From NCBI GenBank assembly GCA_965205265.1, contig CBDBGH010000003.1, positions 2,272,001-2,336,000 of the forward strand: a DNA stretch of 64,000 nt, read 5' to 3'. Source of the stretch: Alphaproteobacteria bacterium. GTDB taxonomy: Bacteria; Pseudomonadota; Alphaproteobacteria; Bin95. Under the pieces are notes generated by a model. The model was not told the origin of the DNA. It saw nothing but the letters and a program-made list of their open reading frames with translations, and did no database searches. Shown one piece after another: positions 62,298 to 64,000 of this stretch; within the stretch, counting starts at the first letter, position 1, and each line of letters starts with the position of its first letter. Position numbers and translations under genes: made by a program.

Positions 62298-62333
62298 GAG
62301 AAACCGGCAAGGACAGCGATGCGAAATCGTAAG

Positions 62334-63707
62334 CGATGGAGTGGACGCCCCTCCCGACGGCATCGCAATGTGCCAGGTTGACGGTGTTGTAAACGCCAAG
62401 AGAGGAAAGGGGCGTCCATGGAACAGGTTAGCATGATCGGGATCGATCTCGCGAAGAACAGCTTTCAGCTTCACGGTGCGCGACCCGAAGGATCGGTCGC
62501 GTTCCGGAAGAAGCTGAGCCGGGGTAAGGTGCTGGGGTTTCTGGCCTCGCAGCAGCCCTGCACAGTTGCGATGGAAGCCTGCGGCGGCGCGCATCATTGG
62601 GGTCGTGAGATTGGGCGTCTGGGCCATGCGGTGCGGTTGGTTCCGCCGGCCTACGTGAAGGCCTACGTCAAGCGACAGAAGAACGATGCGGCGGATGCGG
62701 AGGCGATCTGCGAGGCGGCATCGCGTCCGACGATGAGTTTTGTGGCGGTGAAGACGGTCGAGCAGCAGGCCCGTGGCATGCTGTTCCGCACGCGCGATCT
62801 GCTGGTGCGCCAGCGGACCCAGACGATCAACGCGCTTCGCGGCCACCTGGCGGAGTTCGGTGTCATTGCTCCCCAGGGCCCGGTTCATGTCGAGCGTCTG
62901 GCGTCGGCGCTTGAAGACCCGGACCTGGATCTGCCGGATGCGGTCCGCGAGCTGGCCGGCCTTCTGTTGAACCAGATTGGCGGGCTTGGCGAGAAGATCG
63001 ATGGCCTTGACGGGGAAATCCGGGCGGCGGCTCGGCAGGACGACGAGGTACGTCGTCTGATGACGGTGCCGGGGATCGGCCCGATCACTGCGATGGCGGT
63101 TCAGGCCTTCGCGCCGCCGATGGAGACCTTCCGGCGCGGACGGGACTTCGCCGCCTGGCTCGGCCTGGTGCCGCGCCAGCACACGACCGGCGGCAAGCCG
63201 CGGCTGGGCAAGATATCGAAGATGGGCCAACGCGATCTGAGACGGCTGCTGATTACAGGCGCCATGGCGGTCGTTCGCTGGGCGGCTCGGCGCGGCAGGA
63301 CGAACGATCCATGGCTTGCCAGGATGCTGGCGCGCAAGCCGCGTATGCTGGTCGCCGTGGCGCTGGCCAACCGGATGGCGCGCATCGTCTGGGCGCTGAT
63401 GATGAAGAAGGAGAGTTACCGGGCTCCCGCCGCCGCCTGACAGGGCGGCCGGACGGGTAGCTGTCGGGGACGCGGGCAGGTCTGAGGAAAGGCAAGGGCA
63501 AACGGTCAATCGAGACGGGATCGGGAAAACCAGTTCAGCTCCGCAGGGCCGTTGAGCTCGCGTAAGCGATTTGGACCCGGTCCGCGCATCTCCATGAGGG
63601 CCCGCGGCGCGTGACCTGCCGCATTGAGAGGCCGGACACACGACAGCGCCTGACCGCGCGCCGAGCCGCCCGAAGAAAATGCTTGCGTCACCAGGGGCGT
63701 CCACACA
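62334..63707 (+). mobile_element. IS110-family (IS1111-type) element (transposase 62418-63440)
   Basis: GIDLAK, MEAC, KNDAADA, GLVP..TGGK; 12-bp sub-terminal IRs GTGGACGCCCCT (62341-52) / AGGGGCGTCCAC (63693-704); CG at both junctions. Confidence 0.93.
63470..63690 (+). ncRNA. Predicted bridge/seek RNA of the IS110 element (boundaries approximate)
   Basis: 3' non-coding region contains target-matching GCTCCG (63538-43) and CGTAAGCG (63561-68) inside stem GGATCGGG/CCCGGTCC, and donor-matching CTCCAT (63590-95) and ACACACGA (63636-43). Confidence 0.7.
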
Positions 63708-64000
63708 CGGGGCGAGCGGGGCACCTTCCAGGTTCGGTTCTGATTTGAGATTCACGCCTGCGAGTTGGGCAGGAGGTGAGTTTCACATTGTTGGGCTCAG
63801 TTGAGACACACAGGACGGTTGAAGTGCTTCCGGCGCGTGGCGGACGTCGTCGCTGGCCGGACGAAGTGAAGGCTCGGATTGTAGCGGAGACGCTGGAGCC
63901 TGGGGCGACGGTGCGCGCCGTTGCGCGGCGATACGATGTTCATTCGAACCAGCTGACGAGCTGGCGGCGTCTGGCGCGGGATGGGCGTCTTGTTTTGCCT
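63708..64000 (+). mobile_element. IS66 element 3, left part (TIR begins at 62329 and is split by IS110; tnpA from about 63776 runs off the window)
   Basis: Rejoined end [55 protein letters not shown]. Confidence 0.85.

Follow-up and report, generated by a model that had tools for sequence, protein, structure and literature searches.

An IS1111-type insertion sequence in the end of an IS66-family element, with a predicted guide RNA that matches its insertion site

The element analysed here lies near the right-hand edge of a 64,000-nucleotide stretch of an alphaproteobacterial genome (the window: positions 2,272,001 to 2,336,000 of contig CBDBGH010000003.1, assembly GCA_965205265.1). Positions are those of the window; genome coordinates carry the prefix C3. 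The segment 62336-63709 (+ strand), 1,374 bp from ATGGAG to ACACACG, is very probably an intact insertion sequence of the IS1111 group (IS110 family) that moves by RNA-guided recombination, with guides spelling GTAAGCG^GGGC. This reading is supported by the anatomy of the element, its empty site, the co-variation of guides and flanks across relatives, and a conserved RNA structure.

A first-pass annotation of the window had put an IS1111-type IS110 element at 62328-63720. The element does lie within that interval, but both ends were set too far out, so that the flank CGTAAGCG (8 nt) on the left and the flank GGGCGAGCGGG (11 nt) on the right were included. Counting the core CG on the left places the element at 62334-63707. 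Its main parts are:

62418-63440, + strand: transposase/recombinase gene, 340 aa, with PF01548 DEDD_Tnp_IS110, PF02371 Transposase_20 and the motif GLVPRQHTTG
62341-62351, + strand: left subterminal inverted repeat GTGGACGCCCC, 11 bp, 0 mismatches to the right copy
63694-63704, + strand: right subterminal inverted repeat GGGGCGTCCAC, 11 bp, 0 mismatches to the left copy
63705-63709, + strand: right extension ACA and core CG, read from the sequence

The family assignment was confirmed by Pfam domains, recombinase structure matches and the subterminal repeats. PF01548 (N-terminal DEDD, RuvC-like) covers transposase residues 7-146 (E 2.7e-14), and PF02371 the C-terminal part (E 4.2e-24). The protein matched the solved bridge recombinase ISCro4 (9t56) with an E value of 9e-16, and IS621 (8wt6) with 1e-11 in the C-terminal domain only and at low similarity. 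GLVPRQHTTG aligns with GLTPRRYESG of ISCro4 and fits the motif GL-P----(S/T)G defined for IS1111 transposases (PMC11187229). The subterminal repeats are perfect over 11 bp, within the range of about 11-13 bp of the IS1111 group. With the core CG counted on the left, the terminal extensions are CGATGGA (7 bp) at the left and ACA (3 bp) at the right, in keeping with the asymmetric 7-bp and 3-bp extensions of the IS1111 family (PMC11187229). The non-coding ends measure 82 nt upstream and 269 nt downstream of tnp, the longer one being downstream as in the IS1111 group. Insertion is site- and orientation-specific and is accompanied by no duplication beyond the core, both occupied sites in the genome being alike in position and orientation.

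The element is inserted 7 bp inside the left tip of a complete IS66, between GTAAGCG and GGGCGAG. Inverted repeats of the IS66 family typically begin with GTAAGCG, and three IS66 subfamilies of this genome do so. The parts of the interrupted IS66 that fall in the window are:

62321-62328, no strand: 8-bp IS66 target-site duplication GCGAAATC, second copy at C3:2338256-2338263, past the IS66 right end and beyond the window
62329-62335, + strand: terminal heptamer GTAAGCG of the IS66 left repeat, which is the left target, with the core CG at 62334-62335; found elsewhere in the genome as uninterrupted GTAAGCGGGGCGAGCGGGGCACC
63710-64000, + strand: remainder of the IS66 left repeat (GGGCGAGCGGGGCACC...) and start of tnpA (from 63776), continuing past the window

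In the genome this IS66 measures 2,553 bp. It has the ends GTAAGCGGGGCGAG... and ...CGCTTAC, the latter followed by GCGAAATC again, and the 8-bp duplication on both sides is a trait of the IS66 family. Its three genes are consecutive open reading frames (ORFs): tnpA (HTH_Tnp_1), tnpB (TnpB_IS66) and tnpC (zf-IS66 and LZ_Tnp_IS66), the C-terminus of tnpC lying in another frame. The proposed location inside an IS66 end was borne out by two unoccupied copies of that end, GTAAGCG-GGGCGAGCGGGGCACC, at C3:2338768 (+) and C3:2391739 (-).

The first-pass annotation had also proposed four guide segments in the 3′ non-coding region, two for the target and two for the joined ends of the element itself. 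All four were found where it had put them, and the second pair does match the joined ends:

63538-63543, + strand: right target guide GCTCCG, complementary to top-strand CG|GGGC, one of the pairs being G-U
63561-63568, + strand: left target guide CGTAAGCG, identical to the top-strand left flank and core, so that it pairs with the bottom strand
63590-63595, + strand: right donor guide CTCCAT, complementary to the element left end ATGGAG
63636-63643, + strand: left donor guide ACACACGA, equal to the right end and core (ACACACG) plus the first base of the left end, spanning the circle junction

In 20,000 dinucleotide-preserving shuffles of the 269-nt region, GTAAGCG occurred 168 times, CGTAAGCG 59 times, ACACACG 461 times and a G-U-tolerant complement of ATGGAG 4,325 times; no shuffle contained all four guide matches together. 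The left-target and left-donor matches are individually unlikely to be due to chance. The segment complementary to the top strand stands 5′ of the one that matches the bottom strand, the same guide order as reported for IS1111 seekRNAs (PMC11187229).

Relatives were collected by a protein-based scan with one genome per species, which gave 456, and the best 80 were taken; the left end could be called in 72 of these. The alignment was restricted to elements whose subterminal repeats differ at one position at most and whose non-coding region measures 240-330 nt. This set contained 57 elements including the window copy (47 distinct non-coding regions), the other 24 loci being dropped; 44 of the 47 have enough flank on both sides and represent 37 distinct guide pairs. 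The alignment shows a conserved scaffold with two hypervariable blocks, one on either side of a small hairpin. The left-guide block agreed with its own left flank and core at a mean of 6.86 of 8 positions, compared with 3.10 in 1,322 cross pairings. For the right-guide block, the longest run complementary to core and right flank averaged 7.03, compared with 3.89 in cross pairings. The observed guide-flank sum for the 37 guide pairs was reached by none of 10,000 permutations. Two further blocks track the element's own ends: in 28 of 31 distinct combinations the left donor block is identical to the right end, and these cover 11 of 13 different right-end 7-mers.

The closest relative (94% protein identity) is present as three copies, L007-L009, in one other genome. 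It retains CGTAAGCG, and in place of GCTCCG it has the right guide CCGGACG. All three copies are flanked by GTAAGCG|TCCGG, with three different left flanks, and GTAAGCGTCCGG would be the target for this version of the right guide. On sequence grounds these copies appear to represent a natural retargeting, in which one guide was kept and the other swapped.

Several relatives occupy sites of other kinds. L022 and L067 (2501-3800 in each) lie inside the right subterminal repeat of another IS1111-type element, with flanks ...ATGCTTGCATCACCGGGGGCG on the left and TCCATAGACG... on the right and guides TCTATGGAC and GGAGGCG that fit the site; the family thus has its own members among its targets. L114 (3501-4869; Bradyrhizobium barranii plasmid NZ_CP086137.1, 28954-30322), which is 65% identical, splits an annotated IS66-family tnpC rather than an IS66 end, and the flanks CATAACCG|TCCACCTG agree with its guides CAGGTGGA and CATAGCCG. 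One relative has six copies in three genomes (L015-L017, L020, L021 and L027), all of them at ...CGGCGTSCAAWWTTG|ACCCC, a repeated sequence that is also found beside the insertions. L049-L051 and L080 have TG as the last bases of the left flank, CG at the element's right end and CTCTCG as left guide, so that the core copies differ by one base at these four loci.

An RNAalifold consensus of 40 sequences contained 29 pairs in six helices, with compensatory changes in 20 of the pairs. The proportion of paired cells was 96.3%, against 89.8% in shuffles (none of 500 reached the observed value) and at most 47% when partners were slid. On the window copy the structure is:

63504-63655, + strand: predicted bridge/seek RNA core, with outer helix GGTCA (63504-63508) / TGACC (63651-63655)
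63518-63583, + strand: target-binding stem-loop, with closing helix 63518-63525/63576-63583, then CCA 63530-63532/TGG 63572-63574
63546-63559, + strand: small hairpin between the target guides, GGGC 63546-63549 / GCTC 63556-63559
63599-63633, + strand: donor-side hairpin, GGCC 63599-63602/GGCC 63630-63633 and GCGGC 63604-63608/GCCGC 63618-63622

The outer helix encloses the target stem-loop and the donor hairpin in a three-way junction, and each guide pair flanks a hairpin. In the target closing helix (helix 2), GGATCGGG (63518-63525) pairs with CCCGGTCC (63576-63583), and seven of its eight pairs show compensatory change; in the small hairpin (helix 4) all four do. Comparative structure upheld the enclosing stem and the small hairpin that had been drawn around and between the target guides. 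Folding and covariance modelling of the 3′ region, which had been suggested as a check, gave a conserved scaffold. The covariance model found both full copies of the element at 169 bits, and it recovered, at 61.8 bits, the non-coding region of a distant IS1111-type element on which it had not been trained (C3:2141770-2143172). The latter is the second IS1111-type element of this genome; it is on the - strand, single-copy and has the core AA, and it carries guides CATGACATT and GTCATGGAA that agree with the flanks GTCATAGAA|TGTCATG. The left end of a further IS66-family element is about 136 bp away.

These features suggest the following pathway. The 269-nt downstream region would be the source of a bridge/seek RNA, some 150 nt long, that adopts a three-way junction. 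Its 5′ guide GCUCCG is predicted to pair with the top strand of CG|GGGC, and its 3′ guide (C)GUAAGCG with the bottom strand of GTAAG|CG, so that the two target guides would jointly define GTAAGCG^GGGC, the 11 bases with which the left repeat of one IS66 subfamily begins. CUCCAU and ACACACG(A), around the donor hairpin, would recognise the left and right ends of the element as joined in a circle. The recombinase would excise the element as a circle with the predicted junction ...CCACACACG|ATGGAGTGG, and strand exchange at the shared CG core would place it 7 bp inside the IS66 end in a single orientation. Production and binding of the RNA, circle formation and insertion driven by the guides are expected by analogy with the published biochemistry of the family. 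The parting of GTAAGCG by 1.4 kb from the rest of the IS66 repeat probably disables that end. The sole argument for immobilisation of the IS66 is that its transposase cannot work on a repeat interrupted after 7 bp.

Some of the data count against this account, and they are weighed here together with the alternatives on which they bear. The first-pass annotation held that the element homes to the conserved GTAAGCG end of IS66. The guides do match the site, but repeated homing within this genome is not secure. A second full copy, at C3:588103-589495, is 100% identical to the first and sits in the same IS66 end with different DNA outside. The identity extends over the next 1,518 bp of IS66, whereas unoccupied copies of that IS66 are only 94-97% identical. 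The two full copies need not be independent and may descend from one insertion event. There could have been a single insertion into an IS66 end, after which the IS66::IS1111 composite or segment was copied by IS66 transposition or by recombination between IS66 copies; there would then be no repeated homing in the genome and the IS66 would not be immobilised. The left-side identity of the two copies ends exactly at the IS66 terminus, and the second copy, bounded in this way, may reflect another act of homing or else composite movement. The IS66 at copy 2 is moreover a chimera, with a 4.66-kb insertion and a right part that is 94% identical, and it has no target duplication, so recombination has acted there. 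Against descent from one insertion, the IS66 transposase is unlikely to act on an end that has been cut to 7 bp and continues into 1.4 kb of foreign DNA. A third, older insertion after GTAAGCG, a 94-bp left-end remnant that is 95% identical and follows GGTAAGCG at C3:432577-432670, is in a different context, and the closest relative has its three copies behind three different left flanks. We regard descent of both full copies from one insertion as a serious possibility, though somewhat less than probable. The tnpC of the interrupted IS66 in the window is apparently frameshifted, and this IS66 may be defective and immobile in any case.

The 4.66-kb insertion at copy 2 (C3:591010-595667), which begins with GTGTGTCC, breaks the tnpC of the IS66 carrying that copy. 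It starts at the point where the 1,518 bp of full identity end.

A different alternative concerns what is recognised: the target may be a short string of about 11 bases (GTAAGCG and GGGC) that has no functional relation to IS66, whose ends are hit only as its commonest location. A scan for the left guide within the scaffold returned 21 metagenome stretches, 17 in RNA context and four chance matches, and one further genome among 400 other genomes of the class. The right guides of these elements differ and mostly fit their right flanks. The first-pass annotation had called for comparison of the flanks of other copies with the same guide, with sites lacking GTAAGCG as the telling outcome. Of the visible left flanks among the metagenomic elements, 9 of 10 end in (G)TAAGCG (two of the nine consist of just the last 6-7 nt of a contig, and L089 and L090 are the same sequence), but L105, with the same left guide, has the left flank GTATCCG. 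Among the metagenome or genome loci, 13 combine the GTAAGCG left guide with a right flank of 500 nt or more, and IS66 genes adjoin only 2 of them (L087 and L097); many of the contigs are short, and the tblastn search used the proteins of one IS66 subfamily. The other right flanks hold DUF3800, Metallophos/AAA_27, ankyrin or IS4/5-type transposase genes, or nothing recognised.

A search downstream of the other GTAAGCG sites for an IS66-type inverted-repeat partner, which would point to a miniature inverted-repeat element (MITE), found one only in L097.

Among the 72 loci with a called left end, IS66 proteins lie beside L008 only. L008 occupies the tnpC-proximal end of an IS66-family element, and L009 matches that end over about 180 nt; no IS66 genes lie near L007. 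GTAAGCG occurs at 269 sites in the present genome. Full pairing with the right guide is seen at six unoccupied ones, of which two are this IS66 end and four are not. The commonest IS66-type end, GTAAGCGATGCGG (18 sites), has no fit to the right guide and is unoccupied. Likewise unoccupied is GTAAGCGGTGCGGG, the right end of the interrupted IS66, which departs from the right guide at a single position, that of the G-U pair. Because only 2 of the 13 loci lie beside IS66 genes, the guide appears to specify GTAAGCG and about four further bases, and not IS66 as such. In the case of the present element, the left end of one IS66 subfamily carries that string. A link with IS66 is favoured by the occupied sites of the genome, two full copies and one remnant, which all follow GTAAGCG, both full copies being in the same IS66 left end, and by the position of L008, L087 and L097 at IS66-family ends. 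We consider it rather unlikely that IS66 ends are hit solely as the commonest location of the string.

A quick maximum-likelihood tree of 60 transposases also bears on this question. The 14 rows with a GTAAGCG guide require four changes, at least three of them forced by well-supported branches, so that the guide occurs in at least three separate groups, as might be expected of a favoured 7-mer. This is weak evidence: 12 of the rows are metagenome loci chosen by the guide itself, and six loci with ORFs of less than 300 aa were left out. The distribution gives only a hint of recurrent use of the guide. We put forward tentatively, and as doubtful, a broader proposal that RNA-guided IS1111 elements may repeatedly use IS66 termini as a landing pad. 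The left guide would be fixed on GTAAGCG because IS66 cannot change that heptamer without losing the site of its own transposase, the right guide would be rewritten for each IS66 subfamily, and the guide would have been gained or kept in at least three transposase lineages, each insertion disabling an IS66 end. If true, this would amount to RNA-guided hyperparasitism of one transposon family by another.

It is highly improbable that targeting is directed by protein, with the 3′ region merely an untranslated region or terminator and the flank matches due to chance or to copied end sequences, as guide blocks co-vary with flanks in 37 lineages, 20 of 29 pairs show compensatory changes, and experiments on other family members have demonstrated an RNA-guided mechanism (PMC11187229; PMC11208160). 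Two results lean this way. The right-target match comprises six pairs including a G-U pair, and a G-U-tolerant complement of CGGGGC occurred in 14,722 of the 20,000 shuffles; as this match is not significant alone, its call rests on its homologous position in the family alignment. Single-sequence folds of the non-coding region were no better than shuffles (z 0.25 and 0.01), secondary structure being informative only in comparative form. Other results count against the RNA-guided reading more generally. Guide and flank fit poorly in 4 of the 37 pairs (L038, L040, L048 and L076), and a search of 62000-64000 gave no Rfam family, only one chance snoRNA hit below threshold. The sequencing runs were all searched as contigs, and no more than about 5% of the sampled words occur in the three RNA libraries. 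The contigs of these libraries extend over parts of relatives only, and DNA carry-over is possible. The same applies to contigs of run X20, which cover 63388-63528 with 0-6 differences and show no ends.

No circle junction was seen in the contig data, where rare forms cannot show. Run X4, which carries another organism label, yielded contigs with 0 differences over 62328-63182 and 63155-63800. The first of these continues into unlike sequence to the left of 62328, and the X4 contigs may come from the copy-2 locus and so are not independent.

A further feature lies near the right end:

63682-63687, + strand: TTGCGT, a conserved -35-like hexamer, of which TTGC is conserved in the alignment

In a circle, TTGCGT would stand 17 nt before CACG|AT across the modelled junction; the IS1111 family has a junction promoter that is formed in the circle (PMC11187229). 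A scan of 62250-63800 for sigma-70-like promoters found none, and the three terminator-like sites in it are near shuffle expectation. At the left end, the subterminal repeat at 62341-62351 can pair with GGGGCGTCCAT at 62409-62419, a segment overlapping both the ribosome-binding region and the ATG. The fold of 62336-62430 has an energy of -38.7 kcal/mol (z -3.15), and the pairing recurs in relatives with altered letters; it may block translation of read-through transcripts. Elsewhere in the window, a gene at 57992-60070 (+) encodes a 692-aa large serine recombinase (Resolvase, Recombinase, Zn_ribbon_recom and HTH_17). It abuts a second IS66-family tnpC at 60059-61414 (-), which is shortened near its C-terminus.

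IS4321 and IS5075 reportedly target Tn21-family transposons at their inverted repeats. The present element resembles them in being IS1111-type, in having subterminal repeats and in occupying one position and orientation inside the terminal repeat of another transposable element. Their target, however, is a Tn3/Tn21-family transposon, and the element described here is instead found in the end of an insertion sequence of the IS66 family; the guides, the host and the sequence are different too. With ISEc11, ISPa11, ISKpn4 and ISPst6 (Siddiquee et al. 2024, PMC11187229) it shares the long non-coding region downstream of tnp, the 7-bp left and 3-bp right extensions, the GL-P----(S/T)G motif, the guide order and the existence of naturally reprogrammed relatives. 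Those elements target a short linear site, REP sequences and attC sites, in contrast to the IS66 end here, and their seekRNAs were purified and reprogrammed experimentally, whereas the present element is known computationally. IS621 (Durrant et al. 2024, PMC11208160) also has four guides, for left and right target and left and right donor, with a shared core dinucleotide, one guide of each pair for each DNA strand, and a recombinase with DEDD and Tnp_20 domains. Its RNA differs in being encoded in the left end, the present one lying in the right end with the guide order reversed. The IS621 RNA has two stem-loops in series, and not guide pairs flanking hairpins in a three-way junction.

The mechanism and the family are thus already known (PMC11187229; PMC11208160), and for a specialist the behaviour is that expected of the family and no surprise. 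The target class, an IS66 end, was not found described in print: a search for IS66-end targeting by IS1111/IS110 or bridge RNA elements returned no description, although the target tables supplementing the two papers and ISfinder lay outside the search and may include one. GTAAGCG occurred in the literature text only in primers, and PMC3281130 gave no IS66 end sequence.

The elements described here form a clean natural series of bridge/seek RNA reprogramming, in which close relatives retain the GTAAGCG guide and swap the other to suit differing sequences beyond the heptamer, and distant ones change both. The structure-supported model of the IS1111 guide RNA can be used to annotate such elements and to read their targets from sequence alone. 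If the relation to IS66 is real, this would be a second case, beside IS4321/IS5075, of a site-specific insertion sequence that inserts into, and probably disables, the ends of another mobile element.

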